Positions 7,295 through 56,442 of a DNA stretch of 64,000 nucleotides are shown here, in pieces. The notes under the pieces are model-generated. The model was not told where the DNA came from. It saw nothing but the letters and a program-made list of their open reading frames with translations, and made no database searches. Source of the stretch: Bdellovibrionales bacterium (GTDB taxonomy: Bacteria; Bdellovibrionota; Bdellovibrionia; Bdellovibrionales; CAYMLA01); contig OZ244239.1 in assembly GCA_965217115.1 (NCBI GenBank), positions 582,392 to 646,391 of the forward strand, in the 5' to 3' direction. Both the position numbers and the translations under genes were made by a program. Every line of letters starts with the position of its first letter. Within the stretch, counting starts at the first letter, position 1.

Positions 7295-8533
7295 ATGTTA
7301 AAAAATGCCGACCCAATTATCCATCAATCCATTGAAGAGGAACTTCAAAGGCAAGAGTATGGACTGGAGATGATTGCCTCCGAAAATTATGTCTCCCCCG
7401 CAGTTCTGGAAGCCCAGGGCTCTATTCTTACCAATAAATACGCCGAGGGATATCCAGGCAAGAGATACTACGGCGGCTGTCATGTGGTTGATCAAATCGA
7501 GCAGCTCGCGATCGACAGAGCCAAGGAACTCTTTGGGGCCGAACACGCCAATGTTCAACCCCACTCAGGAAGCCAAGCAAACATGGCTGTCTATATGGCC
7601 GCCCTCTCCCCCGGTGACAAAGTCATGGGCATGGACCTGTCTAATGGTGGGCACCTCACCCATGGTTCACCAGTGAACTTTTCAGGAACATTATACAATG
7701 TTATCTCCTACAAGTTAGATCCTCAAACTCAGAGAATCAATTACGATCAAATGCACTCCCTCGCACAGGAGCATCAACCAAAAATGATCATTGCAGGTTA
7801 CAGTGCCTACCCACGCTCTCTAGAGTTTTCTAAGTTCAGAGAAATTGCCGACTCTATCGGAGCTAAACTCCTCGTAGACATGGCCCACTTCTCTGGTTTG
7901 GTTGCTGGTGGTGTCCATGAGTCCCCTATTCCCTATGCCGACTTTGTGACATCCACAACCCATAAAACCCTACGTGGCCCACGGGGAGGCTTGATTCTCT
8001 GTAAGGAAGAATACGCTAAAAAAGTTAATTCTAAAATTTTTCCCGGTATTCAGGGCGGTCCCCTGGAACACATTATCGCTGCCAAGGCCGTCGCTTTCGG
8101 CGAAGCTCTAAAACCCTCATTCAAAACCTACGTTGAGCAAGTTGTCAAAAATTGCCAAACCTTGGCTAAAGAACTCATGGCGAACGATCTAAAACTTGTT
8201 ACAGACGGAACTGATAACCACCTTATCCTCATTGATCTCTCTTCGACAGAGGTCACGGGTAAACTGGCCGAGAATGCTCTCGATGAAGCTGGTATCACTG
8301 TCAATAAAAACACCGTGCCCAATGAACAGCGCAGCCCTTTCGTAACGAGTGGCATTCGCATCGGTACAGCGGCATTAACAACCAGGGGAATGAAAGAAGA
8401 AGAGATGAAAACCATCGCAAAATGGCTCATCGCCGTCATTGCTGACCCTGAAAATAAATCTCATCTCAAGAAGATAAAACAAGATGTTAAAAAAATGTGT
8501 CTTAATTTTCCATTGTACATAAAATCTTCTTAA
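7295..8533 (+). CDS. glyA: Serine hydroxymethyltransferase
   Basis: [25 protein letters not shown] and the [17 protein letters not shown]-Lys motif are present. ATG 7295 has a GAGG RBS (the ORF track starts at 7277). Confidence 0.96.
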
Positions 8534-8552
8534 AACTTTTACAGGCGCTCCT

Positions 8553-9050
8553 ATGAGTTATCTCTCTACACACTCTTATAAAAAATCACATTTTATTTTC
8601 TTGATACTCACAGGGTTTCTGATCCTTAGTAGCTGTTCAACTCCGCCTCGTATAAGACAGTTGAAAAAAAAAACCTCCCGTAAACATTATTTTGACTGGC
8701 CTGTCGATCGCGCCCGTTTAACGCAAAAATTCAAACTCTACTCCCACCTGGGAATTGATCTCGCCTTTAAAACAGGAACTCCTATCTACGCAGCACACGA
8801 TGGTATCGTTATATACGCAAACTCTGGGTTTTCTGGATTTGGAAAATTAATCATCATCGAGGGAGAAAACAATAACCTGGCCACATTCTACGGCCATTTA
8901 AATAAAATTCGCGTCCAACAAGGGCAGCGAGTCTCTCAGGGCAATCGCATCGGTGATATGGGAAGCACAGGCCGTTCTAGTGGCACCCACCTTCATTTTG
9001 AAATTCGTAAGAACAAACGATCTCAGGACCCTCTCAAGTATCTTCCATAA
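8553..9050 (+). CDS. M23 family peptidoglycan metalloendopeptidase, lipoprotein
   Basis: Lipobox LSSC, HxxxD (HLGID) and HLHFEI motifs are present. Confidence 0.85.
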   Translation: MSYLSTHSYKKSHFIFLILTGFLILSSCSTPPRIRQLKKKTSRKHYFDWPVDRARLTQKFKLYSHLGIDLAFKTGTPIYAAHDGIVIYANSGFSGFGKLIIIEGENNNLATFYGHLNKIRVQQGQRVSQGNRIGDMGSTGRSSGTHLHFEIRKNKRSQDPLKYLP

Positions 9051-9066
9051 TAGATATTAAGATGGC

Positions 9067-9966
9067 CTAATCCTTCTCCGCCATTTTATTTACAGCTAGC
9101 ATAGATTCACGGATCTGCTCAGCCATGCTGCCCACCGCGTTCGCTGAATAAGGAAGTAGCAACGTATTTGTTTTAGAATTTTTTGTCACATCCTGAACCG
9201 TATCATAATGCTGAGTCATCAAAAGCAAAGTCATCACTTCAGATTGCTCCGCCCCTGTTTGTGAAATCGTCTCCATTGCTTCCCTAATACCACCAGCAAT
9301 TTCCAAACGCTGGGCCGCTAAACCAACCCCCTGTAACCGCTTGCTCTCCGCCTCTCCCTCAGCCTCTTTGACTCGCTTAATCTTAGACGCTTCGGCCTCA
9401 TTCTCTGCAGCGACCTTGTCCCTTTCAGTGGCATTAATGCGGTTCATCGAATCTTTGACATCCTTATCTGGTTGAATGTCCGTCACCAAAGATTTTGCAA
9501 TGGAAAAACCGTATTCATCCATCGATTCAGATAGACTGTCCTTAATTGCTAGAGCCACGGCATCTTTATTGGCAAAAACATCATCCAAAGTCATCTTAGG
9601 AATCTCTGATCTCACAACATCAAAAATATAGGCCTCAATCTGTGTTTCAGGAGATTCCAACTTGTAATAGGACTCTTCAATCTTATCAGACAAAACGAAA
9701 AATTGAACAGACACATTCGTAAGAACAAACACATTATCTAACGTTTTTGTCTCTACCTCTACATCCAATTGTCGAATACGCATGTTTTGAAAAAACACAA
9801 TTCTATCAATGAATGGGATCTTTAATTGCAACCCTGGATTAGCAACTCGTTCAAATTTCCCTAATCTCTCTATGATAGCTGCTGTTTTTTGACGAACTAC
9901 AAAAAAACCATCATAAATCACATACAGGGCAACTGCCATTACTACATAAAAAAAAGATCCTTCCAT
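9067..9966 (-). CDS. SPFH/band-7 (stomatin/prohibitin-like) membrane protein
   Basis: An N-terminal TM segment is followed by an SPFH-like core and a coiled-coil AEAE-rich region. ATG 9966 has a GGGAG RBS. Confidence 0.8.
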   Translation of the reverse strand: MEGSFFYVVMAVALYVIYDGFFVVRQKTAAIIERLGKFERVANPGLQLKIPFIDRIVFFQNMRIRQLDVEVETKTLDNVFVLTNVSVQFFVLSDKIEESYYKLESPETQIEAYIFDVVRSEIPKMTLDDVFANKDAVALAIKDSLSESMDEYGFSIAKSLVTDIQPDKDVKDSMNRINATERDKVAAENEAEASKIKRVKEAEGEAESKRLQGVGLAAQRLEIAGGIREAMETISQTGAEQSEVMTLLLMTQHYDTVQDVTKNSKTNTLLLPYSANAVGSMAEQIRESMLAVNKMAEKD

Positions 9967-10011
9967 AATCAAACTCCCGTTGGGTTAGGAATACACTGAC
10001 ATTAAATCGAT

Positions 10012-10224
10012 TTATTTTTTCTTATGATGTTTGCATTCACCTTTTTTATGGCTCCTACATTCTCTTTTTTTCTTTATTGAACAACTTTTCTTTTTGCAAA
10101 CCCCTTTATGGGAGCAACTAGCCTTGCCGTGATGACCACGCTTACCGTGATGTCCGTGACCTCCATGATGAGCACAGCTCGCTAGTAGAAAAATAAAACT
10201 TAATGCAATCATCATTGTCTTCAT
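10012..10224 (-). CDS. Small His/Cys/Lys-rich lipoprotein (candidate periplasmic metal-binding peptide)
   Basis: 70 aa with a GGGAG RBS and lipobox LLASC. The mature part is almost only H, K, G and C (HHGGHGHHGKRGHHGK...CSHKGVCKKKSCS...CRSHKKGECKHHKKK). Confidence 0.6.
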   Translation of the reverse strand: MKTMMIALSFIFLLASCAHHGGHGHHGKRGHHGKASCSHKGVCKKKSCSIKKKRECRSHKKGECKHHKKK

Positions 10225-10407
10225 CTAAAACTCCCTTTTTTAAATTGTTATTTATAAATTCGGTGCCAAATTATAAGGACCTCTAGCCTCTTTCTACAAT
10301 CTTTTTTATTGATTTTTCACTGCTCTGTACCAAATACTGAAACCAACCCCCAGTGAGCCCTTGATTTCACATCTCGCCTATCATAAGCTCGCCACAGATA
10401 ATGCTGC

Positions 10408-10484
10408 GCAGCCGTAGTTCAACTGGATAGAGCACCAGACTTCGAATCTGGGGGTTGCAGGTTCGAGTCCTGCCGGCTGCACCA
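10408..10484 (+). tRNA. tRNA-Arg (anticodon TCG)
   Basis: GCAGCCGTAGTTCAACTGGATAGAGCACCAGACTTCGAATCTGGGGGTTGCAGGTTCGAGTCCTGCCGGCTGCACCA folds as a cloverleaf by eye, with anticodon loop CTTCGAA and an encoded CCA end. Confidence 0.9.
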
Positions 10485-10574
10485 TTCTGACCTCCTGGGG
10501 CTAACCAGGTCCATTTTTTATGTTAAAATGGACAGGGTGCTGACTGTGTAGATTGGTCTTGCTAGAATAAACAC

Positions 10575-11012
10575 ATGGCTCGAAGTATAAAATTTTTAAT
10601 AATTATTATGTTCATATATTTTTCATGTCTAGCGGAGAAAAATAAGAGCTTAGAAAAGTCATTGCCTGCTAAGCAGGATTTTAGAAATATTTTTAATTTT
10701 TTAGGCCGTGATTTTGGGTGTAGAGCCAAGCATAGTTGGATTGGAATAAAACTGTTATCAAAACACATAATTCTACTCGAAAATGACGGTGACTCAGATA
10801 CCGAATATTATAGAAGCACCTCCTATAAAAAAGGAAAATTAAGTGCTGAAAATTTTCTAGAAGGACATTATGATTATACAACAACAGTTCGTAAGTCATC
10901 ATCACATCAATCAAAAATTGAACTGAAAGGGTACAAAGACCATTTGGAATTAACAGTTTTTAAAAGAAATTCTAAAAATCAAAAAAAACTTATTTGCAAA
11001 CCAAGACTTTAA
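10575..11012 (+). CDS. Hypothetical secreted/lipoprotein (145 aa)
   Basis: A hydrophobic N-terminus ends in FSC. No family was recognised. It is the first gene of the island 3' of tRNA-Arg. The RBS is weak. Confidence 0.45.
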   Translation: MARSIKFLIIIMFIYFSCLAEKNKSLEKSLPAKQDFRNIFNFLGRDFGCRAKHSWIGIKLLSKHIILLENDGDSDTEYYRSTSYKKGKLSAENFLEGHYDYTTTVRKSSSHQSKIELKGYKDHLELTVFKRNSKNQKKLICKPRL

Positions 11013-11014
11013 AC

Positions 11015-11108
11015 CACTAGGTAGCTGACCAAATATCTGCCCAAAAAGACAATGGAAAAAGGGCCAGTTAAGTAGCTGGCCCTGCGGTTAAAAACCATTC
11101 CTTAGAAA
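11015..11108 (+). repeat. Gene-terminal repeat, copy A (~92 nt) containing hairpin GGGCCAG-N8-CTGGCCC
   Basis: It is near-identical to 12047-12138, and its first 37 nt match 13825-13861. It starts 3 nt after the stop codon of the upstream ORF. Confidence 0.85.
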
Positions 11109-11233
11109 GTGAGTTGAAACTCTCGGTTAATGGAGTTCAGTTTGTCCTTCTGGTCGAAAGTCTAACTAAAATAGAACCTTCCCCCCTCCTAGATATTATA
11201 TTATAATGTTCCTGGACAACTAGGAGGTTGTAA

Positions 11234-12028
11234 TTGTTGAGACTTAGAAATTTTTTGGTTTTTTTTATTCTTTGTTTTTTATCTCTATTTTTATTTGGAG
11301 AAAGTAAGTCCGAGGTTCTTGGGCGAGTTCTAAATCTGAACTCGTGGGATATTGGCTCTGGTTTTACTTTTGACTCAAAAGGAGGAGTTCTATTTGATAG
11401 TGCTTTGTGGACTAAAAATGGTTCGACTTATACATCAAGAAAAGAGCCAAAGGGAGTCACTTTGAAGGAGAATGGGAATAGAATAGAAATCACTCGCTAT
11501 GACGACTCTAATTATGGAAACTTTTTTAAGGACGCTTCTATAACGGTGATTTTAAATAATAAGGTTTCTTCACACACTGAAGTAAGTTTTGGAGGAGCTT
11601 ATACCGTTACTCCTCTTCTTTGTCTAACTATGGCTAAAAAGGTTGGAGCAAAAAATTTTGATGATTTAAAAGAAAAAGGTCAACACTGCGGTAAGTTAGT
11701 TGATACAATTGTTTCTAGTATATTTAATGATACTGCATTAGAACTATACACTCGTGATATTCAGAAATCTAACCTTAAGAGGATGAAGTCTTCATCTGAG
11801 ACATTATCTAAAATTGTTACTGACCGGACAGAGCGTGCTGGAAACTGGATTTTTGACAGTAAGCCTCGAGAAGGTAGATTTTTTAATAAATCCTTAGGAG
11901 GAAATGCAGGGAGAGCAGCTTCGGCGGTGTCTGAGGCTGTAGATGTCTGTAGAGCACTTTTCCCAAATTCTTTATTAAGGCCTTCTAATACAACGACTGT
12001 CCCCAATAAAAAGTCGGCTGTCAATTAG
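11234..12028 (+). CDS. Hypothetical secreted protein (264 aa)
   Basis: A TTG start sits 5 nt after AGGAGG. It has an N-terminal signal-like hydrophobic segment. No family was recognised. Confidence 0.6.
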   Translation: MLRLRNFLVFFILCFLSLFLFGESKSEVLGRVLNLNSWDIGSGFTFDSKGGVLFDSALWTKNGSTYTSRKEPKGVTLKENGNRIEITRYDDSNYGNFFKDASITVILNNKVSSHTEVSFGGAYTVTPLLCLTMAKKVGAKNFDDLKEKGQHCGKLVDTIVSSIFNDTALELYTRDIQKSNLKRMKSSSETLSKIVTDRTERAGNWIFDSKPREGRFFNKSLGGNAGRAASAVSEAVDVCRALFPNSLLRPSNTTTVPNKKSAVN

Positions 12029-12046
12029 GTGGCCTGAGCCCTGTTG

Positions 12047-12138
12047 ACTAGGTAGATGACCAATATCTGCCCAAAAAGACAATGGGAAAAGGGCCAGTTA
12101 AGTAGCTGGCCCTGCGGTTAAAAACCATTCCTTAAAAA
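12047..12138 (+). repeat. Gene-terminal repeat, copy B
   Basis: By eye it differs from copy A by about 3 substitutions and one 1-nt indel. It starts 19 nt after the stop of the 264-aa ORF. Confidence 0.85.
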
Positions 12139-12139
12139 A

Positions 12140-12652
12140 GGTTCTTTGTGATAAATATTGGTGGAGCCAGTTTTTTTCTGATGAGCCGTTTTTTTTCTAG
12201 AGTATCTCCCAAAAGACTCTAGCCCTCTTCTTGCTCAAACATCCGTTTGTCACCTTCCATTGCAGAGAAATGCAATGGAAGTCGCCAAGCCAAACTCGCC
12301 GAAAAGAACTGGACTCTTTTGGAAGATACCCTAGAAAAAAATGCCGTATTCAATCAATGAGTCAATGGATCTTTAGTGTAATATCAAAGGGAATTGTACA
12401 AAAGACTGGGAAGGCCAAAGTGTTGGTTTAGAAATAGGTCATTTATTCTGAACAAATTCGATCGAAAGTTTGAAACGAATAATAATAAACCTGGGTTGGT
12501 TTAGAAAACTGAGCTCCATTAACTAGACAGATTTCCTCTATTTCTATGACTGACCTCCATGTATAACAACGCTGTTATCCATGGATAGTTTTAAAAGAGA
12601 ACCCTCAAGATGAGTCTCTTGGGAATAGTTCCACTATTTATCACAAAGAACC
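12140..12652. repeat. About 0.5 kb non-coding segment bounded by a perfect 17-nt inverted repeat (GGTTCTTTGTGATAAAT / ATTTATCACAAAGAACC); MITE-like candidate
   Basis: The IR arms are at 12140-12156 and 12636-12652. The interior contains a perfect 11-bp hairpin (12254-12281) and only a weak 66-aa ORF. Confidence 0.35.
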
Positions 12653-12749
12653 AAACATTACTTAAAAAATCAAATTTTTACAAGAATTGTCACTGTTAAC
12701 TTTTTAAACAGAATATCTTAGTTAACTGCCTGTAACTACTATTTGAGAT

Positions 12750-12765
12750 TGGCAGTCATCTTGCT
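12750..12765 (+). promoter_or_regulatory. Sigma-54 (-24/-12) promoter candidate TGGCAG-N5-TTGCT
   Basis: It matches the consensus TGGCAC-N5-TTGCW with one mismatch and correct GG/GC spacing. It lies about 55 nt upstream of ATG 12820. Confidence 0.55.
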
Positions 12766-12819
12766 TTAAATAGCACTGATAAGCTGAATTTTTATTCACA
12801 AAACTGTAGGGTTACCGCT

Positions 12820-13830
12820 ATGAGATTTCTTATATATTTTGTGTGTGTGGTGTTAACATTGAAGGTTGACGCAAACTCAGAACTAATAATTAGTAAAAAC
12901 TGTTCTGCCATTTTTTCTAGAACTAAATTAAATATTAATAATAAGGGAGCATCTCAGCAATTTGTAGAGTCCTTAAGGAAGGCACTCTTAGAAGTAAATA
13001 ATAACTTGGATCCATTAAAACAACCTGTAGGATATCGAATTGATCTCTACAAGGCTATTAAACACACGAGTAATTATAATGGCCCATTAAATCAGTTTGG
13101 AGTAATTAGGTCGTCTGAATATTATTCAGTCATAACTAAATCAGGAAAAATGCACTCTGTTCACCCTGAGTACAGTAAGGCAATTGCTGTACATGAATAT
13201 GGGCATGAAGTTTTTGCGCAAAATATTGGGCAATATATCACAAATACGAGGGTACAAGAATTTTTCAAAGGGCGCGAATTAATATTTAAAAATCAGCAAC
13301 AAACTAGTGTACTGAGGCAAAAAATTGAAAAATTGAAAAGAGCTGGTCTTAATAATGAAGAGATTATTGAGCATCCATACTTTGTAGAATTTGTAAAAAG
13401 ACGTGACTTAATAGACAAAGGGTTAAATGCTTATTCTATAAATGAGAAACAGAAGAATATTATTATTTCTTACGATGAATTATTTGCAGATGTAATAGCA
13501 GTTATCGGTACAAATAGACCTAGAGCGGTCTATCGTGCAAACAATGCAGGAGGAAGAGGCCATACTGGTAGAGACTTTACAGCACATACACCATTAAGAA
13601 GTTGGAAGGGTGCCTCTTTGCATGAAATGTTTTCCCCTACTAGGTCACATTTATGGAAACAGTATTTGTCCCATCCAAAATTTCAGTATGAGAAACCTAA
13701 GATATTAGAGGCTTTACTAAGAGCTATTGGTAAGGAAATTGATTTTTATACTTCTATTAAATTTGTAGATTTACCACATGAAAAAAACGCCAGATTAATT
13801 GACGCTTTTGGTAGGGAATTTGAACACTAG
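12820..13830 (+). CDS. Secreted putative zinc metallopeptidase (HExxH)
   Basis: It has a signal peptide, HEYGHE at codons 125-130 (nt 13192-13209) and a downstream ELFAD (ExxxD, gluzincin-like third-ligand motif). The family is not identified. Confidence 0.55.
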   Translation: MRFLIYFVCVVLTLKVDANSELIISKNCSAIFSRTKLNINNKGASQQFVESLRKALLEVNNNLDPLKQPVGYRIDLYKAIKHTSNYNGPLNQFGVIRSSEYYSVITKSGKMHSVHPEYSKAIAVHEYGHEVFAQNIGQYITNTRVQEFFKGRELIFKNQQQTSVLRQKIEKLKRAGLNNEEIIEHPYFVEFVKRRDLIDKGLNAYSINEKQKNIIISYDELFADVIAVIGTNRPRAVYRANNAGGRGHTGRDFTAHTPLRSWKGASLHEMFSPTRSHLWKQYLSHPKFQYEKPKILEALLRAIGKEIDFYTSIKFVDLPHEKNARLIDAFGREFEH

Positions 13831-13861
13831 GTAGATGACCAAATATCTGCCCAAAAAGACA
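13825..13861 (+). repeat. Gene-terminal repeat, truncated copy C (first 37 nt only)
   Basis: CACTAGGTAGATGACCAAATATCTGCCCAAAAAGACA. The TAG stop of the metallopeptidase ORF lies inside the repeat. Confidence 0.8.
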
Positions 13862-13955
13862 GATCGTCTCCACTCCATCCCTTTTAAAGGCAACCCTCAG
13901 AAAAATTGAAAAATTTACATCACTCGATGAATTTCCCCTTAAAGACATTGACATC

Positions 13956-13964
13956 TGTTATAAT
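13956..13964 (+). promoter_or_regulatory. Extended -10 promoter candidate TGTTATAAT
   Basis: A TGnTATAAT match lies about 90-160 nt upstream of the first paralog gene. There is no properly spaced -35. Confidence 0.3.
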
Positions 13965-14119
13965 GGTTCAAAAGTTTAAACTGAATAAAAAACTTTAACC
14001 CTACTAATTTAATTTCTTAGATTAACAGTGCATACTAAAGAAGGAGAATTATGATGAGAAAAATAGGACAAAACGAAAATGGCTCGGCGACCCTTGTCAC
14101 ATTAATGGAGAAATTATCT

Positions 14120-14731
14120 ATGAAAACATTAATTCTAATTATGGCAATATTTGTGTCTGCTCAGGCATCTGCTAATGCCCAAGTATTAACTCAGATTGTG
14201 AAGAACATAACTGGTTTGACGAGCACGGCTGGCAAGACTTCAAGGATTCAAAAAAAGGTTCTCAAAGAGTTTCTAGACCGACAGGTCATAAAAACTACCG
14301 ATGACTTTGGACGCATATCAGAAGTGAAATTTCACCAGACACTAGACGTTAAAAATCTTGAGCTTACAATGACTTCTCTAAAACCCCGTAAAAGAGCTGG
14401 AGGTCCAGATTGGACGATAAAAATCAATCATGTGGACTCTCTAGTTGAAGGGTTTAAAAAAGCAGACATTGATCGGTTGATAAAAAACTTTCTTAAAAGC
14501 AAAGGCTTAAAAGGGACACAAGTAAAAAATTCCAATCTCACAGACGTGAAGCATATGAACTATGGTATGCTCAATTATAAATTAAGCTCGCGCGCAAATG
14601 ATTCTTTTATAGAGATTGAATTAATCGATGTTAGCAGGATGTACAACCACGGGGATGTTATTGCTGGGCTTTTAGAGAAAATATCCACTAAATATCTTAA
14701 TTTTTCAAACTCAGCAGCGGCGTTGCTCTAA
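14120..14731 (+). CDS. Secreted protein of unknown function, paralog 1
   Basis: MKTLILIMAIFVSAQASANA signal peptide. The conserved GGAG lies 7 nt upstream of ATG 14120. A longer alternative start at 14051 has an AAGGAG RBS. It is homologous along its whole length to the next gene. Confidence 0.65.
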   Translation: MKTLILIMAIFVSAQASANAQVLTQIVKNITGLTSTAGKTSRIQKKVLKEFLDRQVIKTTDDFGRISEVKFHQTLDVKNLELTMTSLKPRKRAGGPDWTIKINHVDSLVEGFKKADIDRLIKNFLKSKGLKGTQVKNSNLTDVKHMNYGMLNYKLSSRANDSFIEIELIDVSRMYNHGDVIAGLLEKISTKYLNFSNSAAALL

Positions 14732-14765
14732 AGAAATTTTATAGCTAATGTCATTAAAAAGAAGG

Positions 14766-14801
14766 CAGACATTAAACCTGAGTATATGTCTGTGTCTTTT
14801 T
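14766..14801 (+). terminator. Rho-independent terminator candidate
   Basis: CAGACAT-N13-ATGTCTG stem followed by TGTCTTTTT, about 35 nt after the paralog 1 stop. Confidence 0.4.
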
Positions 14802-14936
14802 AACGAGGTAAATAATTGATCCCCAGCCGACAAGGCGAGAAGACCATGGCGGGGTCACTTTGCAGCGCCTAAAATGGCACCTGTCTCAAATATCTACAGC
14901 CAAAAGGCCTTAACTCTCTTAAGTGGCATTCTAACA

Positions 14937-14952
14937 TGGCACTCGTATTGCT
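14937..14952 (+). promoter_or_regulatory. Sigma-54 (-24/-12) promoter candidate TGGCAC-N5-TTGCT (perfect core match)
   Basis: TGGCACTCGTATTGCT lies about 50-65 nt upstream of the ATGs of paralog 2. Additional TGGCA boxes are at 14873 and 14924. Confidence 0.6.
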
Positions 14953-15015
14953 CTAATAGTGGAGTGAAATGACGTGAAGTCATTGGAAATAAATCAAACG
15001 ATGGAGAAAATATCT

Positions 15016-15609
15016 ATGAAAACATTAATTCTAATTATGGCAATCTTTGTATCTGCTCAGGCATCTGCTAATGCCCAAGTATTCACTCAGATTGTGAAGA
15101 GCACGATTGCAAGTCCAAGGATTCAAAAAAGGGCTACCCAACAGTTTCTAGACCGACAAATAATAGACATTGTCGATAACTTTGCAGGCATATTATTAAA
15201 AGTGGATTTTCACAAAACACTAGGCGTTAAAAATCTTGAGCTTACAATGCTTTCTCTAAAAGACTATAAAAAAGGTGCCGCTTCAGAATGGAAGATACAA
15301 ATCAAGCATGTGGACTCTCTGGTTGAAGGCTTTAAAAGAGCAGACATTGATCGGTTGATAGAAGATTTTTTTAAAAGCAAAGGTTTAAAATGGACACTCA
15401 TTAAATTTCCCAATAACATAATCGAGAAACATATAGACTCTGGCATGCTCAAATATAGCTTCAGCTCGTCCACCAATGACTCTGTTATAAATATTCGATT
15501 AATCAATGTTAGCTCGCAAGACGCCTACCAAACTATTATTACTGAACTCTTACAGAAAATATCCACTAAATATCTTAATTTTTCAAACTCAGCAGCGGCG
15601 TTGCTCTAA
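15016..15609 (+). CDS. Secreted protein of unknown function, paralog 2
   Basis: It has the same signal peptide and an identical C-terminal KISTKYLNFSNSAAALL as paralog 1. The ORF track starts at GTG 14974. Confidence 0.65.
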   Translation: MKTLILIMAIFVSAQASANAQVFTQIVKSTIASPRIQKRATQQFLDRQIIDIVDNFAGILLKVDFHKTLGVKNLELTMLSLKDYKKGAASEWKIQIKHVDSLVEGFKRADIDRLIEDFFKSKGLKWTLIKFPNNIIEKHIDSGMLKYSFSSSTNDSVINIRLINVSSQDAYQTIITELLQKISTKYLNFSNSAAALL

Positions 15610-15632
15610 TCCAAAAAGTGGAGAGATTAAAT

Positions 15633-17141
15633 ATGCGTCGTTATTCATCTGCTCTCTGGCTTTTTTCTTTGTTTCAAATATTTTTGGTTGGAAACACTTA
15701 CGCCGATCAAGTATCTTTAGATCAAAAAATTGATTTCTTAATTCGTCAAAAATCCTTTTTTACATTACTGAAAAATGTCAATCATCAGCATCTCTCCCGT
15801 TATCAAAAATGCCTTCAGAATCCAGAAGAGGATTTTACCATTACAGTTATCGGGGAAAATGCTCAAATGAAAGATTACACTCGTCCATGCAAGAAATTGA
15901 TCAAAATTCGTTTTAGAAGGTCCTTTCGGCTACACTACGAAAAAATGAGACTCTACCTTGCATTGAGCAAAACAAGGTACAGAGAATCCCCAGAAATAAT
16001 GTCTCAATCCAATAATATTGATCATAAACTCAATAGAGATATCTCACACCCATCATTTCTTGCCTACTTAGGGTTTAACTATCAACCTATGGATTTATCT
16101 CCTTTATCTGAAAGTGAAACGCGTAAAGCTCTAGATATGTACAGTCAAGACACAAAAGATTTTTGCATAAAATATAAAGAAAACCATTTGGATAAGAGAT
16201 TATATTTTCTAAAAAATGAAACTGATAAAAAACACTTAAAAGAACGGTTTTGTGAAGAATCTCTATTAAAAATCAGCAAAAACCTTGGCCATACAAAATT
16301 CGAAAGAGCCTCGAATCAATTAAATCTAGAGCAATTAAATAGAGATTACCATCGTTCAATAGAATATAACCGAGACAAACTAAGGGCTACATACAAGGGG
16401 CTCTATGAACAAACTATTTCAAAATACCCACTTCTGATATATGGAAAAACAGCTCACCCCACCAACAGGGAGTTATTAGATATTCTAGAGAAAATATCGA
16501 TGCACAATACTGCATTTAATATTAAGGTTGAAGATTATATCGTTGAAAATAACTTAGAGACTGAGATTAATAGTTTTCGCCAAGGCTTGCATAGTCCTAA
16601 GGAAAAAGAGGCCTTATTCGAAAACCTCCTTTTCTTTTTAAAAGAGGGTATTTTTAATGCCTATATGACTAAATACACACTGAACTCCCAGGATTCAGAG
16701 AAAATAAAAGAACTCGTTAAAGAGAAGAAAGAAACCATACAAAGAACAAATATGTTTAAGAGCCTGGGGCTTTTATCAGTTGCCCTTGGTAGTTGCTTTT
16801 TGCCTATTGGAAAAATTATTAAAGTGGCTCAAGTGGCTAAATATATAAAATTAGGTTGCTTTGTCTCTCTTGGAATACCGTTAAATCTATATTTTTTAAA
16901 CATCGCTTATCATGACTTTAATGACGGCTTGTCAGATGTCTTTTCCTCCCCTGATGGAGAGTATATTTTTGGTGATTTTCAACAACTCTCTAGCCATTAT
17001 CAAATGATTGTTTTAAATACGCTTCTGCTTGGTGTTGGGATTGGTCCCATCAAAGAATTTGTCTCTATAACCAAACAGGCGGCCATCCTTAGAAACCCTC
17101 TAAGAGAGAAGAAAAAAAACCTTGATAGATACCTCAATTGA
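15633..17141 (+). CDS. Hypothetical protein with N-terminal signal peptide and C-terminal TM helices (about 502 aa)
   Basis: ATG 15633 has a GGAGA RBS. The body is long and K/E/N-rich and probably helical, with 2-3 hydrophobic helices near the C-terminus. No family was recognised. Confidence 0.6.
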   Translation: MRRYSSALWLFSLFQIFLVGNTYADQVSLDQKIDFLIRQKSFFTLLKNVNHQHLSRYQKCLQNPEEDFTITVIGENAQMKDYTRPCKKLIKIRFRRSFRLHYEKMRLYLALSKTRYRESPEIMSQSNNIDHKLNRDISHPSFLAYLGFNYQPMDLSPLSESETRKALDMYSQDTKDFCIKYKENHLDKRLYFLKNETDKKHLKERFCEESLLKISKNLGHTKFERASNQLNLEQLNRDYHRSIEYNRDKLRATYKGLYEQTISKYPLLIYGKTAHPTNRELLDILEKISMHNTAFNIKVEDYIVENNLETEINSFRQGLHSPKEKEALFENLLFFLKEGIFNAYMTKYTLNSQDSEKIKELVKEKKETIQRTNMFKSLGLLSVALGSCFLPIGKIIKVAQVAKYIKLGCFVSLGIPLNLYFLNIAYHDFNDGLSDVFSSPDGEYIFGDFQQLSSHYQMIVLNTLLLGVGIGPIKEFVSITKQAAILRNPLREKKKNLDRYLN

Positions 17142-17199
17142 ATGAAATACTATGACAGCCTTGATGGATGCGCTAGTTATTAACTACGAGGGGATCTAA

Positions 17200-18414
17200 A
17201 TGAAAAAAATATTGAATGTGTTTGTAATCTTAATCACCCCTTTGTTCAGCGCCCTACTTACCTCTGCAAGTGACCATGTCGATGGACCTGTCACTAAGGA
17301 GCATCGTGTCGCCGATATTAGTGACTTCTATGTCTTTCAATCACCTGGGAACAAGAACAACACAACCATCATAATGAACACCTATCCGTTTGTAGGGAAA
17401 TCTGGGCATTTCTCAAATAAGGTGACATATGAGATTCATATCATTAACCTCAATATTAATAAATCAACGGGGATTTTTGATAAAAAAGAAAAAGCTAAGA
17501 TCGTGTGTGAATCAGTCACCCCACATTCTTCTCGTGAAGATCACTCCCTCTCTAAAATAACTTGTACCGATACGAAGGGAAACAAATCAATCGCCACCCT
17601 CAATGCTAGCCCAAAAAGTAATTTCAATAATCATAAAAATAATCATTTCCCTATTTTTGCAGGTAGAAGGCTTGATCCATTCTTTATCGATACCAAGTGG
17701 GCCACAGAAACAAACAATAGTGGAAAAATTAGCCCCTCTTCTGGAGGTGACAATGACATAGAAGATTTAAATGTCCTTAGCATTGCAATTGACATTAACT
17801 TAAAAGATCTCTTTGGTCATACTTCGTCAAAAATCTATGGCTTCTATGTAGAGTCACTAACACAAGACTCCCCTGGATCTGTAAAGAGAATCCTCGACAG
17901 AGTCGGGCGGGCAGAGATAACAAACTTCGCCATAAACCAAAAAACAGTTCCAGATATTAGAGACTCCTATAACCAAACCGATACTCTTAATATTCCACCG
18001 AGAAAGAAGAAAGAAATCCTTGATAGACTCCTCAATCAGATAAAATACTATGACAACCTTGATGGATACACTGACTGGAGTAAGAGCGAGCAACAACATC
18101 TTGCGAATATTTTTATAGATGATTTTCTTGTCATTGACCTGTCAAAACCCTGTTCTGGTAACGGCTTCTTGGAGATAGAGAAATCACTCATTGCAGGGAG
18201 GCCCCACGAAACATGTGGAGGAAGAAAGCTCACTGACGATATTGTTGATCGTATTTATACATATTATATATCCAAGGATAGAAAAGAATATGGCGACTCT
18301 GTTAATACCCCATCCAAATCTTTTGGAAAAAGCTTTCCCTACCTAAACACGCCAGCAACAGGAGTCTGGGCTTGGATAAAAGCTAAATTTGCATACAAAA
18401 AAGCAAACTTTTAA
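17200..18414 (+). CDS. Secreted DUF4331-like protein
   Basis: A signal peptide is followed by SDHVDGP...VADISDFYVFQSP, resembling the SSHREAP...D.TD.YAF.SP N-terminus of DUF4331 proteins. GAGGGG RBS. Confidence 0.55.
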   Translation: MKKILNVFVILITPLFSALLTSASDHVDGPVTKEHRVADISDFYVFQSPGNKNNTTIIMNTYPFVGKSGHFSNKVTYEIHIINLNINKSTGIFDKKEKAKIVCESVTPHSSREDHSLSKITCTDTKGNKSIATLNASPKSNFNNHKNNHFPIFAGRRLDPFFIDTKWATETNNSGKISPSSGGDNDIEDLNVLSIAIDINLKDLFGHTSSKIYGFYVESLTQDSPGSVKRILDRVGRAEITNFAINQKTVPDIRDSYNQTDTLNIPPRKKKEILDRLLNQIKYYDNLDGYTDWSKSEQQHLANIFIDDFLVIDLSKPCSGNGFLEIEKSLIAGRPHETCGGRKLTDDIVDRIYTYYISKDRKEYGDSVNTPSKSFGKSFPYLNTPATGVWAWIKAKFAYKKANF

Positions 18415-18436
18415 AAATAATTTAAACAATGACTAA

Positions 18437-19699
18437 CTACGACCTTCCATCACGAATCGCCAGGGACGGCCGCAACCCACTCAAACTACGGGCAGGTAAC
18501 CAAGCACTCATAAAGGCCAGCACTACAGATACCAAGAAAACTATACTCACTAAAAACAAATCCACTCGCACGGGAATTTGGGAATCGTAATAAATCCCTG
18601 GAAGCACATTAAGAGGATAGGTCTTCAACAACCAAATGGCTAAAAAAGAAGAGATCATTCCCCCAATGATACCGAGCAATGACAGAAGAAAACCCATTCT
18701 GCCAAATATCTTCGTCACCATCGCAGATGACATTCCAAGGGCCATCAACACCCCGATCTCTTGCTTTTTTTGTGAAACAAGTAACAACATCACTGTAATA
18801 ACACTACATACAGCCATCAAACCACTCAAACATAAAAACAGCCCTATGACCAACTTCTCCAGTTTCAGTGCAAAAAACAATGCCGCATTACGATCTTTCC
18901 AAGATTCTACAATCGCCCCCGGCATTTGTAATAATGCTTCTGTCTCTTCTAACAAATTCATATCATCCAACCACAACTCCACCCCTAAATAACGACTGGG
19001 AGATTCTTTAAACACATGAAGAGCCTTACCTAATTGATAAAAAATAAATTTACTATCCACATCTGACACATTCGTCGTGATGATTTTTCTCACCACCACC
19101 TTCTCTAATCGAGGGACTTCCCCTGAGGGAAGTAACAGTGCCTCAGGAGGTATGACTGTCAATGTATCTCCTTCCAACACCCCCAATCTCTGTGCCAAAT
19201 CAACACCTATCACAACCTCCCCTGCCTCTAAAGGAAAATTGTCTTCCTCCTCCCACAAGGCTTCTTCCCCCTGATTCTTTTGTCGCAATTGTTGAAGGCG
19301 TGAAAACATTTTTTCTAAAGACCTTCCCTTTAACCCTCTAGCCATAGCTCCACGGTAAGCGCCATCAATCGTTCTAAGAATAATATCCTGATTTTCAAAA
19401 ATAGAAAATTGAACTCCCTGCAAAGATTTTACTTTTTTGTAAAAAGAGCTCTCTTCGAGTTTTTTTAAATCATTCGAATCACTCGACCTAATGATCAAAT
19501 GAGGTTCTACTGATAGAATACGCTCCCTAATATTATCATTAAACCCATTCATTATACTCAACACTAGAACAAAACTAAAAACTCCCATAGCAATACCCAA
19601 AACACTCAGGCGAGCAATAACCTTTACCAAAGATCCTGAACGTTTAGAAAAGATGTATCGAGAAAAATAGACCCAACTAAGCATGATCAATAGGCCCAC
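18437..19699 (-). CDS. LolC/LolE-family (FtsX/MacB-type) lipoprotein-release ABC permease
   Basis: N-terminal TM, a periplasmic MacB-like domain and a C-terminal FtsX-like 3-TM bundle. FSRYIFSKRSG...ISVLGIAMGV is typical of the LolC/E N-terminus. An alternative ATG is at 19684. No adjacent LolD ATPase. Confidence 0.8.
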   Translation of the reverse strand: MGLLIMLSWVYFSRYIFSKRSGSLVKVIARLSVLGIAMGVFSFVLVLSIMNGFNDNIRERILSVEPHLIIRSSDSNDLKKLEESSFYKKVKSLQGVQFSIFENQDIILRTIDGAYRGAMARGLKGRSLEKMFSRLQQLRQKNQGEEALWEEEDNFPLEAGEVVIGVDLAQRLGVLEGDTLTVIPPEALLLPSGEVPRLEKVVVRKIITTNVSDVDSKFIFYQLGKALHVFKESPSRYLGVELWLDDMNLLEETEALLQMPGAIVESWKDRNAALFFALKLEKLVIGLFLCLSGLMAVCSVITVMLLLVSQKKQEIGVLMALGMSSAMVTKIFGRMGFLLSLLGIIGGMISSFLAIWLLKTYPLNVLPGIYYDSQIPVRVDLFLVSIVFLVSVVLAFMSAWLPARSLSGLRPSLAIRDGRS

Positions 19700-31364: not shown

Positions 31365-31748
31365 ATGAAAAAGGGGCTTAAGGTTCTTCTCGCCGAAGAT
31401 GACCAGAATATTTTTGAAATTCTCTCCCTCTCTCTAAATCATATAGGAGGACACAGTGTTAGCAAGGCCAGTAACGGCGAACAAGCATTATCAATGGCTC
31501 TCAGTGAAAATTTTGACCTTCTCCTCCTAGATGGAATGATGCCAAAAAAAGATGGCGTCACTGTCTGTCGCGAGTACATTGCACAAAAGAAAAATCCTGC
31601 TCCTGTTATTTTTCTCAGTGCTAGATCCTCTCAGCAAGATATCCAATTAGGACTAGAGTCTGGGGCTATTGGTTACATTGCCAAGCCCTTTGACCCCACA
31701 ACCATTTGTCAGGATATCTCCAACATCCTCTCCAAGCCACGGTTGTAG
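31365..31748 (+). CDS. Single-domain response regulator (CheY-like receiver)
   Basis: VLLAEDD, the LLLDGMMP phospho-acceptor Asp region and the YIAKPF Lys. Confidence 0.88.
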   Translation: MKKGLKVLLAEDDQNIFEILSLSLNHIGGHSVSKASNGEQALSMALSENFDLLLLDGMMPKKDGVTVCREYIAQKKNPAPVIFLSARSSQQDIQLGLESGAIGYIAKPFDPTTICQDISNILSKPRL

Positions 31749-31750
31749 CC

Positions 31751-33103
31751 ATGAAGTATCAACCTATTCGCCGAAAAATATCCTTTATCGCTTTTATCTT
31801 CTCTAGTATTATGTTGGGCTTTGGTTTTCTCTCTCTTCAAGTACTCAAAGGTAACCAATATTTACGTCAATCACTGCTCTATAGCTACTCATTAGAAGCA
31901 CACGTCAAAGCAGCTCAACACTATAAGTACAGCAAAAAACAATATGCAACCCTACAAAATATTCGTAAAAATCTCATCGATAATACCAGAATTGGTCTTC
32001 TTAGTGACGTTGTTCAATCTTTTTCTGCCGAGGACAAATCTCAACTACAGAAACGCATTCGAAAATTCTCTCAATATGAAACTCGTTACCGTCATCAACT
32101 AAGTGTTAAACTATCAGGTAGTGAAAAACATCTAGAGGAAATTATTGTAAGTCTTATTACTTTCTTTACATTGATGATTGCTCTTCTTCCTATTTTTCTA
32201 TCAAGGCAAGTTTTCTCTCCTATGAAAAAATTAGCACAGAGAATGTCTGATTTTATCTATAGTAAATACACTTATCAAATGACTCCGCCTGACAGAACAG
32301 AAATTGGTCAGCTCCATGCAACTTTTAATTCTCTAGCCGAACGAGTCGTTAATAACGTGAACAAACTCAAAGCCCTTGATGAAGCCAAAACAGATTTTCT
32401 TAACATTGCCAGCCATGAACTACGCACGCCTATGACCTCTATCAAAGGGTCCTTAAGCCTGTTGTCTAAAGGAATCGTTGGACAATTAGACAGTAAGGCT
32501 CAAAATTTAATTAATATCGCTGAAGGTGAATCCGATCGTCTTATTCGCTTGATCAATGACATTCTTGATCTTGCAAAGTTGGAAGCGAATCAATCATCTA
32601 TAAAACCTGAATGGGTGAATACCCATTCTTTCGTAGATAGAACAATCAAAGGACTTACAGGACTCTCCCAACAAGCCTCTGTTGATGTTATTATCAACGA
32701 TCAATTTTCTAAAAACATAGAAGCCTATGTAGATGAAGATCGTGTCATTCAAGTTCTCACAAACTTTCTATCTAATGCAATTAAGTATACGGAAAAAGGA
32801 TGCACTGTGAGGGTTCATTGCCATATAGTGGATCAATCCCTACGCATTGATGTCGTCGATGAAGGACCTGGAATCGCCTTTGAAGACCAAGAAAAAGTAT
32901 TTGATAAATTTCGTCAAATCTCTGGTCCAAATAACCCATTGGTAAAAGGAACTGGTCTTGGATTAGCCATCGCTAAAGCCATTGTAGAAGATCACAATGG
33001 AACCCTTGGACTTCACTCTTCACCAGGAAGAGGAAGCACGTTTTATTTCACTATTCCAAAATGGCGTAAACAATTACAAACAACTAAGAAGACAGCCGCA
33101 TGA
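31751..33103 (+). CDS. Membrane sensor histidine kinase
   Basis: Two TM segments, H-box FLNIASHELRTP, and N/G boxes (LSNAIKYT, DEGPGI, GTGLGLAI). Start taken at ATG 31751, just after the RR stop. Confidence 0.88.
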   Translation: MKYQPIRRKISFIAFIFSSIMLGFGFLSLQVLKGNQYLRQSLLYSYSLEAHVKAAQHYKYSKKQYATLQNIRKNLIDNTRIGLLSDVVQSFSAEDKSQLQKRIRKFSQYETRYRHQLSVKLSGSEKHLEEIIVSLITFFTLMIALLPIFLSRQVFSPMKKLAQRMSDFIYSKYTYQMTPPDRTEIGQLHATFNSLAERVVNNVNKLKALDEAKTDFLNIASHELRTPMTSIKGSLSLLSKGIVGQLDSKAQNLINIAEGESDRLIRLINDILDLAKLEANQSSIKPEWVNTHSFVDRTIKGLTGLSQQASVDVIINDQFSKNIEAYVDEDRVIQVLTNFLSNAIKYTEKGCTVRVHCHIVDQSLRIDVVDEGPGIAFEDQEKVFDKFRQISGPNNPLVKGTGLGLAIAKAIVEDHNGTLGLHSSPGRGSTFYFTIPKWRKQLQTTKKTAA

Positions 33104-36010: not shown

Positions 36011-37357
36011 TTGGCCTTTAATCTACTCATTGTAGATGATGATCCTCTTGTGCAACAATCCATAGATATGATTGTCAAAGACCCGTGGAAGTTCCATGGG
36101 GCCTCCTGTTTAAAATCTATTCCTTCAGGAACCACTCTTCACGCCGCCTTTGTCGATATGCACTTGAGTGATGATCTGGAACAAACGGAGGGCCTACAAG
36201 TCCTATCTGCTTTGAGAAAAACCCACCCTCATATAGAGCTTATTGCCATCTCTGGAGATCTTAATCAAAAGCTCATGGAAAACGGATTAAAATGCGGTGC
36301 TTCTAAATTTCTGGCAAAACCCCTCAGCCCAGAAGAAGTTCTTCTCACATTAGAAAAAATCGAAGCTCATTATTTGCTGCAAAACACCATTTCGCAGAAT
36401 TTTCTTCATTATAAACACTCACACGCTGTGTGGATTGGCTCCAGTGCTTCTTCGCTGAAAATTCGCCATCAAGTGTCACAACTCAAGGGAGAGACAGCGC
36501 CCATTCTTATTCACGGAGAAACAGGAACTGGTAAAGAAGTTGTCTCACAAATGTTAGGCACTCAAGAGTCAGGACCTTTTATTCAAGTTAATATCGCCTC
36601 CTTGCCAGAGAACCTTTTTGAAAGTGAGATCTTTGGCCATATCAAGGGATCATTTACTGGTGCCAATCAAAATAAAATTGGCCTTGCCGAAGCCGCTCAC
36701 AACGGAACTTTACTTCTTGATGAGATCGAAGCCCTGCCGACACATCTGCAAGTAAAACTTCTACGCTTTCTCGAATCAGGTGAAATAAAAAGAATTGGTA
36801 GCACCACTGCAATACATCTCAACGTGCGAGTGATTACCACCACCAACGAAAATTTAGACAGCAAGGTCAGTGATGGAAGCTTCCGCGAAGACCTCCTGTG
36901 GAGAATAAAAAGTCATCTCATAGAACTCCCACCATTGAGAGATAGAAAAGAAGATATCAAGGAGCTTGCCCAATATTTTCTCAAAAAAGAACGGCCCCAT
37001 CGCAATAAGAGCTTCACCGAAGAAGGTATTGAGTCTCTACAAGATCACCCGTGGCCAGGGAATGTTCGCGAACTCAAGCGCGTCTGTGAACAACTCAGTC
37101 TCCACTCACCTCTACCCATTATACGAGAAGAAGATATTAAGCATCTTTTACAACCTTCTCCTAATCATCAAGACCTTCCTAAATGGGAACAACTGGATTT
37201 CAGCAAAGGCCTTTCCCATTTAGTCAATCAATACGAAGCAAAACTGATTAGAATTACGATGCAACAAGATAAAAACATCGATAATGTCACTAAAAAATTG
37301 CAAATCTCCCGCTCTAGCCTTTATAAAAAGTTAAAGGATTATGATATTAGTAAATAA
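36011..37357 (+). CDS. Sigma-54-dependent response regulator (NtrC-family enhancer-binding protein)
   Basis: Receiver domain (VDDD...VDMHL...KPL), AAA+ GETGTGKE, the GSFTGA sigma-54 contact loop, ELPPLRDR, and a C-terminal Fis-type HTH. TTG start after GAGG. Confidence 0.88.
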   Translation: MAFNLLIVDDDPLVQQSIDMIVKDPWKFHGASCLKSIPSGTTLHAAFVDMHLSDDLEQTEGLQVLSALRKTHPHIELIAISGDLNQKLMENGLKCGASKFLAKPLSPEEVLLTLEKIEAHYLLQNTISQNFLHYKHSHAVWIGSSASSLKIRHQVSQLKGETAPILIHGETGTGKEVVSQMLGTQESGPFIQVNIASLPENLFESEIFGHIKGSFTGANQNKIGLAEAAHNGTLLLDEIEALPTHLQVKLLRFLESGEIKRIGSTTAIHLNVRVITTTNENLDSKVSDGSFREDLLWRIKSHLIELPPLRDRKEDIKELAQYFLKKERPHRNKSFTEEGIESLQDHPWPGNVRELKRVCEQLSLHSPLPIIREEDIKHLLQPSPNHQDLPKWEQLDFSKGLSHLVNQYEAKLIRITMQQDKNIDNVTKKLQISRSSLYKKLKDYDISK

Positions 37358-42254: not shown

Positions 42255-42270
42255 TGGCCCATATCTTGCC
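42255..42270 (+). promoter_or_regulatory. Sigma-54 (-24/-12) promoter candidate TGGCCC-N5-TTGCC
   Basis: GG/GC spacing is correct with one mismatch in the -24 box. It lies about 80 nt upstream of ATG 42350. Confidence 0.5.
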
Positions 42271-51588: not shown

Positions 51589-52149
51589 GTGAAAAGATTT
51601 ATTGATTTGTTATTGCTCATCCTAACTATTCCATTAACAGGAACATTAATCATTTTTCTAATTCCAATCATGAGGGTATCTTCAAGGGGGCCCATATTAT
51701 TCTGGTCAGACAGGGTTGGTCTTAATAATAAAATCTTTAGAATGCCTAAACTACGTACTATGAAGGTGAATGCGCCAGTCATCGCGACACATCTTATAAA
51801 GAATCCTGACGAGCTTCTAACTCCTATTGGTGCCTTCCTGAGGTCATCTAGTTTAGATGAATTACCTCAACTATGGTGTGTCCTTATAGGTGAGATGAGT
51901 TTTGTTGGCCCAAGACCTGCCCTTTTTAATCAATATGATTTAGTTAATCTAAGAACACAACATGGCATTGACAAGGTCTTGCCTGGCTTAACTGGTTGGG
52001 CACAAATTAATGGCCGGGATGAAATCTCGATACCTCAAAAAGTCAAACTTGACCTTTATTACAAGCAGAAGCAGTCAGTATTTTTTGATATGAAGATCAT
52101 TTTAAAAACGTTTCTCAATATTATTATAGCTCAAGATGTCTCACATTAA
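51589..52149 (+). CDS. Small polyprenyl-phosphate sugar-1-phosphate transferase (PglC/WecA-unrelated 'bacterial sugar transferase' family)
   Basis: KRFIDLLL...ILFWSDRVGLNNKIFRMPKLRTM...DELPQL...GEMSFVGPRP. I place the start at in-frame GTG 51589, because the ORF-track start (51388) overlaps the upstream gene by 173 nt. Confidence 0.8.
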   Translation: MKRFIDLLLLILTIPLTGTLIIFLIPIMRVSSRGPILFWSDRVGLNNKIFRMPKLRTMKVNAPVIATHLIKNPDELLTPIGAFLRSSSLDELPQLWCVLIGEMSFVGPRPALFNQYDLVNLRTQHGIDKVLPGLTGWAQINGRDEISIPQKVKLDLYYKQKQSVFFDMKIILKTFLNIIIAQDVSH

Positions 52150-52230
52150 AATGACCATACTCTCAGAACGATGTTTAAAAAATATAGTTTTTAGGAATTT
52201 GAAGATAACTTTATTCAATCTAAACACGGC

Positions 52231-53712: not shown

Positions 53713-53715
53713 TAA

Positions 53716-55121: not shown

Positions 55122-55141
55122 CTCGTAATTGCGTTATAACT

Positions 55142-56380: not shown

Positions 56381-56442
56381 ATACAGGCATTATACAAGAC
56401 AGGGGACAAATAGCAATCATCTTATTTTGAAAACATCAATAA

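Follow-up and report, generated by a model that had tools for sequence, protein, structure and literature searches.

We analyzed a stretch of 64,000 nucleotides from contig OZ244239.1 of a Bdellovibrionales bacterium, here called the window as a whole, and in it a group of seven consecutive plus-strand genes, g1 to g7, which occupies 8 kb (positions 10485 to 18436) between a tRNA-Arg(TCG) gene and a convergent lolC/E-like gene. An earlier note on this DNA had presented the group, hereafter the islet, as a candidate undescribed system, namely a horizontally acquired or fast-evolving, sigma-54-controlled module of secreted proteins that could be part of a prey-attack arsenal. All seven genes and both boundaries were located as described there, and g1 starts directly 3' of the tRNA gene (from 10484, the end of the tRNA, to 10575), the place where tRNA-linked islands insert. 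The islet is nevertheless a common kind of variable region and not a new seven-gene machine. Its features and boundaries are as follows.

10408-10484, plus strand: tRNA-Arg(TCG), left boundary of the variable region (ARAGORN; Rfam, 69.4 bits)
10575-11012, plus strand: g1, orphan open reading frame (ORF) of 145 amino acids (aa) with a signal-like N-terminus and an N-terminal hydrophobic segment
11015-11108, plus strand: repeat copy 1, 37-nt core plus GC hairpin (repeat families D4 and D7; alignment; fold)
11234-12028, plus strand: g2, 264-aa orphan ORF with an AGGAGG ribosome-binding site and a signal-like N-terminus
12046-12138, plus strand: repeat copy 2, with the strain breakpoint at its 3' end (12133)
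12134-14806, no strand: strain-variable block comprising a non-coding stretch, g3 and g4 (blastn of contig L001 against the window)
12140-12652, no strand: non-coding segment of 513 bp with 22-nt inverted repeats at its ends, resembling a miniature inverted-repeat transposable element (MITE) or an inverted duplication
12750-12765, plus strand: sigma-54-type -24/-12 site upstream of g3, TGGCAG-N5-TTGC, one mismatch
12820-13830, plus strand: g3, putative secreted zinc metallopeptidase of 336 aa, HEYGH ... ELFAD
13825-13861, plus strand: repeat copy 3, core only, whose first TAG is the g3 stop codon
14120-14731 (longest ORF from 14051), plus strand: g4, 203-aa secreted paralog of g5
14937-14952, plus strand: perfect sigma-54-type site, TGGCAC-N5-TTGC, upstream of g5-g6(-g7) and conserved in L001 at 8447
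15016-15609 (longest ORF from 14974), plus strand: g5, 197-aa secreted protein, upstream partner of g6
15633-17141 (longest ORF from 15618), plus strand: g6, 502 aa, member of a small Bdellovibrionota-restricted family
17076-17180, plus strand: decayed DUF4331 fragment (tblastn, 51% over 35 aa to g7 residues 259-293; DNA repeat D3, 78%)
17200-18414, plus strand: g7, 404-aa secreted protein of the DUF4331 family (PF14224)
18437-19699, minus strand: LolC/E-type permease gene with FtsX and MacB_PCD domains, convergent; right boundary, outside the islet

The content of the islet was compared with that of a second strain, represented by one low-coverage metagenome contig of 8.6 kb from the European Nucleotide Archive (L001), which carries g1, g2 and a tRNA-Arg(TCG) gene of identical sequence. 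By blastn, positions 1 to 3025 of L001 correspond to window positions 9108 to 12133 at 98.9% identity, and positions 8317 to 8591 to window positions 14807 to 15081 at 96.7%, while the intervening segments (between 3025 and 8317 in L001, 12134 to 14806 in the window) gave no match to each other and are unrelated. In the window this block measures 2.7 kb and consists of the non-coding stretch, g3 and g4; in L001 it measures 5.3 kb and encodes a 681-aa Cys-rich protein, a trypsin-like protease (Pfam E=1e-9), a 161-aa signal-peptide protein and a 309-aa lipoprotein with an HELIH motif, so that both strain variants harbor putative exported hydrolases. The mapping of presence and absence around the tRNA-Arg gene, which had been suggested as a check, was thus carried out on a single contig, in which g1 and g2 are kept and g3 and g4 are absent from the corresponding position, their place being taken by other genes. 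The unrelated blocks indicate that gene order is not conserved even at about 99% identity. The strain difference begins 1.65 kb from tRNA-Arg; its left breakpoint (12133) coincides with the 3' end of repeat copy 2, and its right breakpoint (14807) is not at a repeat. Exact-protein look-ups of g7 and RidA, aimed at the right-hand flank of the second strain, gave no match. About 60 nt of GC-rich DNA (approximately 60% GC by eye; 14807 to 14870) begin exactly at the right breakpoint, lie directly upstream of the g5 sigma-54 promoter and are conserved in L001; this stretch may bind an activator or form a structured element.

The retained genes also differ between the two strains. We counted two nonsynonymous differences in g1, and 13 nonsynonymous differences plus one synonymous difference in g2, ten of them within residues 57 to 111, compared with one nonsynonymous and two synonymous differences in the SPFH gene of the flank. 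Within the islet, g4 and g5 are paralogs with 61% amino-acid identity; at the DNA level they are 93 to 95% identical at the ends and 78 to 79% identical in the middle, and their dN/dS (ratio of nonsynonymous to synonymous substitution rates) is 1.16 overall and 1.27 in the middle (dN=0.305, dS=0.24). The islet coding sequences therefore appear to be under relaxed or diversifying selection, and the term fast-evolving, which the earlier note had offered as one of two options, holds for the block swap as well as for g2 and for the middle of g4/g5. The signal peptides of g4 and g5 are identical, as are their last 17 residues (KISTKYLNFSNSAAALL, at 14680-14731 and 15558-15609). These identical ends could reflect gene conversion or a conserved C-terminal sorting or interaction tag.

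Export was judged from a simple N-terminus heuristic, by which all seven proteins begin with basic residues followed by a hydrophobic stretch. The earlier note had assigned a signal peptide, lipobox or transmembrane segment to every gene; signal-like N-termini were indeed found in 7/7, and no islet ORF carries a canonical lipobox. Only g7 matched a family in the libraries searched (Pfam, NCBIfam, PADLOC and PHROGs), none of g1 to g6 having a match there, and the HEYGH and ELFAD motifs of g3 are the other recognizable signature, which agrees with the two signatures reported previously. With 0/7 ORFs matched in PADLOC and PHROGs, an origin as a defense system or prophage was rejected. The orphan status of g1, g2, g4 and g5 is defined by 90% clusters, which contain one or two members, and a search of viral contigs returned no homolog of g2.

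The islet is composed of at least five transcription units: g1, g2, g3, g4 and g5-g6, the last possibly together with g7. A hairpin repeat of its own follows g1 and another follows g2, g4 has its own terminator, and ribosome-binding sites and promoters are in place. Outside the window, relatives of g3, g6 and g7 were never found alongside other islet genes. Because these homologs occur in unrelated contexts that lack the other islet genes, g1 to g7 do not form a conserved module, and the proposal of a seven-gene system fails both on this count and on the number of transcription units.

Among the parts of the islet, the g5-g6 pair is the one that recurs. An exhaustive phmmer search of 1.84 billion proteins yielded 43 representatives of the g6 family, and the named homologs belong to Bdellovibrio bacteriovorus and to metagenome-assembled genomes of Bdellovibrionales and Halobacteriovoraceae, apart from one labelled only "bacterium". 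Each g6-family locus contains a single family member and no homolog of g1 to g4 or g7. In six of the seven independent loci (the window, L091, L092/93, L094/95, L098 and L099), a signal-like ORF of 174 to 236 aa lies directly upstream of the g6 gene on the same strand, at distances ranging from a 1-nt overlap to a 78-nt gap; in L096/97 a similar small ORF is divergent instead. Such small signal-like ORFs make up 7% of the ORFs in g6-family loci, giving a binomial estimate of p ~3e-4 for four of six foreign loci (strict heuristic) and of 1e-5 for five of six. These data point to a conserved two-gene unit, in which a small periplasmic protein would be paired with a helically anchored, disulfide-bonded protein.

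The g6 protein itself starts with a signal peptide, continues into a helical domain whose cysteines are conserved, and has three hydrophobic helices in its C-terminal part. The family alignment shows five invariant cysteines, a sixth that is nearly invariant, and the motifs CFxP, GxPLNxYF and LSSPDG. An AlphaFold2 model built from 19 sequences is almost wholly helical (mean predicted local distance difference test [pLDDT], 81.2; predicted template modeling score, 0.76). Foldseek with this model found nothing in the PDB at E<1 and nothing significant in BFVD, and searching PDB sequences with g6 and g7 profiles gave no match. No structural similarity to alpha-helical pore-forming toxins of the ClyA/Xax/Yax type was found, YaxA and XaxB appearing only at E=7 to 10 with probabilities of 0.01 to 0.02. 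The net charges of the loops across the family (+3.3 between the first and second helices, -1.4 for the next loop and +2.5 for the tail) follow a positive-inside pattern, suggesting a large disulfide-bonded periplasmic domain anchored by the three C-terminal helices. Given the moderate hydrophobicity of the helices, we propose this topology tentatively. In L091, a circular metagenome contig of 2.78 Mb, the distant g6 homolog lies in a 20-kb stretch (positions 1 to 21485) whose ORFs nearly all lack a Pfam match and which includes an rve-type transposase; the stretch probably represents a further variable region, belonging to a related lineage.

Two genes had been credited with sigma-54-type promoters, and both sites were recovered, the perfect one (14937-14952) and the one with a single mismatch (12750-12765), each 45 to 65 nt upstream of a gene start. 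The whole window holds three sigma-54-type sites on both strands, compared with 1.41 expected, and the Poisson estimate for at least two on the plus strand of the islet is ~0.004. Upstream of the distant pair in L098 there is a one-mismatch site as well. Among the genes of the window are one for an NtrC-type activator with receiver, Sigma54_activat and HTH_8 domains (36011-37357, plus strand) and another for a histidine kinase (31706-33103, plus strand); rpoN itself is not located there. The activator indicates that a sigma-54 regulon exists in the organism, and sigma-54 control of two units, g3 and g5-g6, is plausible from these sites. Elsewhere in the window, a sigma-54-like site with two mismatches (TGGCCCATATCTTGCC; 42255-42270, plus strand) lies about 95 nt upstream of the gene at 42350-43405.

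In g3, HEYGH is found at residue 125 and ELFAD at residue 220, 91 residues downstream. Exactly one homolog was found among 5.8 billion proteins, a hypothetical protein of Bacteriovorax sp. BSW11_IV (P0010), which is 40% identical over the full length and in which HEYGHEVF and DELFAD are invariant; its neighborhood contains no other islet gene. No profile match (Pfam, NCBIfam) and no PDB match were obtained for g3. Both motifs fall in predicted helices of an AlphaFold2 model that was made from a two-sequence alignment and is unusable (pLDDT 40.7). Judged by these motifs, the g3 product is a probable secreted zinc peptidase of the HExxH/ExxxD type.

The g7 protein is an ordinary secreted member of the DUF4331 family. 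It matches PF14224 with E=2.8e-31 and 109.6 bits (cut-off, 27), has 51 homologs, all with PF14224 and the best about 40% identical, and aligns over its full length with 50 relatives that share an N-terminal SDHxDGP motif and several invariant Asp, Gly and Pro residues. A literature search for DUF4331 found no papers. The contexts of g7 homologs fell into three sets, one with a HupE/UreJ-type gene, one with trypsin and dioxygenase genes, and one with unrelated genes and no recurring partner; no homolog of g1 to g6 was present in any of them. In L083 to L085 (10001-12231), the DUF4331 homolog is convergent with a HupE_UreJ_2 gene, with a 4-nt overlap, a neighbor that hints at a tie of DUF4331 to metal handling in some lineages. 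In the islet itself, the decayed fragment at 17076-17180 (35 codons) forms the last ~21 codons of g6, indicating that a second DUF4331 copy was once present and has mostly been deleted.

The gene-terminal repeat is, with g6, one of two parts of the locus that merit attention. The 95-nt copies after g1 and g2 are 97% identical, and a copy of their first 37 nt lies at the end of g3. An alignment of six copies defined the invariant core ACTAGGTAGATGACC(A)AATATCTGCCCAAAAAGACA, the start of which, TAG-g-TAG-a-TGA, provides a stop in each of the three reading frames. Four unrelated genes terminate with the core, namely g1, g2, g3 and the 161-aa gene of L001, where the core is oriented the other way; its first TAG serves as the stop codon of both g3 and the 161-aa gene. 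Full copies add a GC hairpin of 9 to 10 bp, whose loop contains all three differences between copies; a T-run lies beside the hairpin on the minus strand, and copy 1 reads as a minus-strand terminator. Folding for an attC-type structure (R''-L''...L'-R', GTTRRRY core) returned only this central hairpin, with no pairing over the whole element. Outside the islet, the window contains no further copy of the core, a distribution that leaves its reading as a repetitive extragenic palindrome or MITE unsupported there, and the core had no match in the metagenomes of the Joint Genome Institute (JGI) or in the other loci fetched. Candidate explanations are a recombination site, a duplicated module of 3' untranslated region (UTR) and terminator, and a small mobile repeat. 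The 513-bp non-coding segment begins just after copy 2; it is bounded by inverted repeats that match at 21 of 22 nt (12140-12161/12631-12652) and encloses a nested 41-nt inverted pair (12190-12230/12301-12341), and a further inverted repeat joins 11126-11143 with 12506-12523. The signs of rearrangement that had been listed earlier (gene-terminal repeats, inverted repeats, a paralog pair and a decayed fragment) are all present.

The islet had also been described as visibly more AT-rich than its flanks, with windowed GC and codon usage proposed as a check. Mean GC is 34.9% in the islet genes and 40.0% in the other 50 genes of the window (Mann-Whitney p=0.001), and GC at third codon positions is 30.7 and 36.3%, respectively (p=0.049), while the codon-usage distance from the window average is the same for both groups (p=0.99). 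The difference of about 5 points is modest, and a second, more AT-rich block exists at 52 to 58 kb; the AT-richness is thus genuine but unremarkable and not by itself a sign of foreign origin. That second block (52000-58000; genes of 29 to 38% GC, all on the minus strand) adjoins a ManC-type GDP-mannose gene (58544-59971) and probably contains surface polysaccharide genes. As claimed before, no integrase or transposase domain was found in the seven islet ORFs, and the flanks consist of housekeeping genes, those on the left being fabH, fabD, fabG, fabF, glyA, an M23 peptidase gene and an SPFH protein gene. Between the SPFH gene and tRNA-Arg, a 70-aa ORF on the minus strand (10012-10224) has a lipoprotein-type signal, LLASC, and a tail rich in His, Cys and Lys (HHGGHGHHGKRGHHGK...), and shows one synonymous difference only with respect to L001; it may encode a small metal-binding lipoprotein.

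Overall, we favor, with reasonable though not high confidence, the interpretation that the islet is a small, chromosomal, strain-variable set of genes, native and lineage-specific, whose products are exported or belong to the envelope, and not one machine. Horizontal acquisition through the tRNA gene, followed by loss of the integrase as in a classical tRNA-integrated island, would account for the position directly 3' of a tRNA gene, for a GC content below that of the rest of the window and for the strain-variable content. It appears unlikely, given that no integrase or transposase was found, that the tRNA 3' end has no second copy at up to three mismatches in the 64 kb (blastn-short returned chance matches of at most 12 nt), that codon usage is typical, that the named homologs of g3 and g6 are all from Bdellovibrionota, apart from the one g6 homolog labelled only "bacterium", and that 1.65 kb of shared sequence separate the tRNA from the onset of the strain difference. 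For the same reasons, native, fast-evolving and lineage-specific genes fit the sequence data better than import via the tRNA. A coherent, sigma-54-controlled seven-gene secreted system, for instance a prey-attack arsenal, would in turn be in line with seven signal-like N-termini on one strand, two sigma-54-type sites with an activator gene in the window, putative proteases in both strain variants and a Bdellovibrionota-like lineage. We nonetheless regard it as very improbable, since other islet genes never accompany the homologs of g3, g6 and g7, a 99%-identical strain has neither g3 nor g4 at the site, and the sigma-54-type sites precede two units only, g1 and g2 being followed by hairpin repeats and g4 by a terminator. 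Of the suggested nature of the products, cell-surface or effector proteins in a predatory lineage, it stands that they look exported and that the lineage, judged by the g3 and g6 homologs, is Bdellovibrionota-like; a role in prey attack is speculation.

Two further explanations concern the repeat and the integrity of the genes. If the repeat were a recombination site and each gene with its repeat a mobile cassette, the islet would be an integron-like array without an integrase, and one would then understand why the 37-nt core ends four unrelated genes, once in inverted orientation, why it carries stops in three frames and lends its first TAG to two genes, why one strain breakpoint coincides with a repeat end and why the window has the core in the islet only. 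This scenario is unlikely: the window region encodes no tyrosine recombinase, the repeat is not an imperfect palindrome of attC type over its whole length, the right breakpoint is not at a repeat, only three to four copies are known, with none in the JGI metagenomes or other fetched loci, and homologous recombination between duplicated 3' UTRs accounts for the same facts. The islet might also be mostly decaying DNA, made of pseudogenes and spurious ORFs in AT-rich junk, as could be argued from the dN/dS of 1 or more for g2 and g4/g5, the gene fragment, the 680-bp non-coding stretch with nested inverted repeats and the orphan nature of g1 and g2. We hold this to be improbable as well, because long intact ORFs are kept in DNA of 35% GC in two strains, homologs of g3, g6 and g7 extend over the full length and preserve motifs and cysteines, g6 could be modeled with confidence (pLDDT 81), and ribosome-binding sites and promoters are in place. 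Several points nevertheless weigh against the interpretation of a native variable gene set. The export of all seven proteins is read from the N-terminus heuristic and the orphan status of four genes from 90% clusters of one or two members; variability is read from one other strain, seen through a single 8.6-kb low-coverage contig, and the species-representative genome collection held no close relative (an SPFH query reached distant taxa at 51% identity or less). Values of dN/dS near or above 1 fit genes that are losing their function equally well, and a lower GC content is equally expected of foreign DNA. With respect to g5-g6, the three C-terminal helices of g6 have mean Kyte-Doolittle values of 0.7 to 1.1 across the family, and the small partners show no similarity to each other or to g4/g5 by BLAST, phmmer --max or hhalign, so that the pair could be a positional coincidence or a case of non-homologous replacement.

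If the islet is indeed a native variable gene set, its history would include the duplication of genes (g4/g5 and two former DUF4331 copies), partial deletion, by which a DUF4331 remnant came to form the 3' end of g6, and block swaps between strains, with one breakpoint at the end of a gene-terminal repeat specific to the locus; g5-g6 would here be transcribed from a sigma-54 promoter. A bolder joint proposal, to which we give little credence, is that the 37-nt core, with or without the hairpin, marks the junction of an undescribed, integrase-free cassette exchange and that g5-g6 is a phylum-specific, sigma-54-controlled envelope device. If it were true, such a mechanism would let Bdellovibrio-like bacteria shuffle secreted-protein genes at a dedicated locus, and g5-g6 would be a two-component device combining a new fold with a hypervariable partner.

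Predatory Bdellovibrio-like bacteria encode very many uncharacterized exported proteins, and the islet is a compact, well-delimited example of how this repertoire diversifies. It offers three handles, namely the phylum-restricted g5-g6 pair, whose g6 model has no fold match, the orphan HExxH protein g3 and the breakpoint-associated repeat. Current concepts are left unchanged by it, and we see it as a modest but useful lead.

Compared with known proteins and systems, the islet shows both familiar and divergent traits. Like gluzincins, g3 combines HExxH with a downstream Glu, which in gluzincins often lies within ExxxD, but its motif spacing and surrounding sequence are unlike those of the families in the searched libraries. 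Nothing distinguishes g7 from DUF4331 (PF14224), a family whose function is not known and for which no solved structure was found. With integrons and with clusters of attC sites lacking integron-integrases (CALINs), the islet shares same-strand genes that are each followed by a conserved structured repeat starting at or near the stop codon, and a strain change at a repeat boundary. Unlike them, it has no IntI, its repeat lacks the R''/L''-L'/R' palindrome and exists in three to four copies, one of them inverted, and its genes have their own promoters. As in integrase-mediated, tRNA-linked islands, the islet adjoins a tRNA 3' end, has a lower GC content and varies in content between strains, but it lacks an integrase, an att repeat and a codon-usage anomaly, and its variable block does not abut the tRNA. 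The closest parallel is offered by Halobacteriovorax, a genus in which about 40% of the genes are annotated as hypothetical and in which strains BE01 and SJ of Halobacteriovorax marinus, at 98% average nucleotide identity, differ in variable regions of 48 to 74 genes, one of them with integrase and transposase genes, regions A and B consisting mostly of strain-unique hypothetical proteins (Enos et al. 2018, PMC5760749). There, as at the islet (locally ~99% identity), close predator strains share most of their genes and differ in regions of hypothetical proteins; in contrast to regions A and B, the islet spans 8 kb, contains no mobility genes, encodes exported proteins and possesses a gene-terminal repeat of its own.

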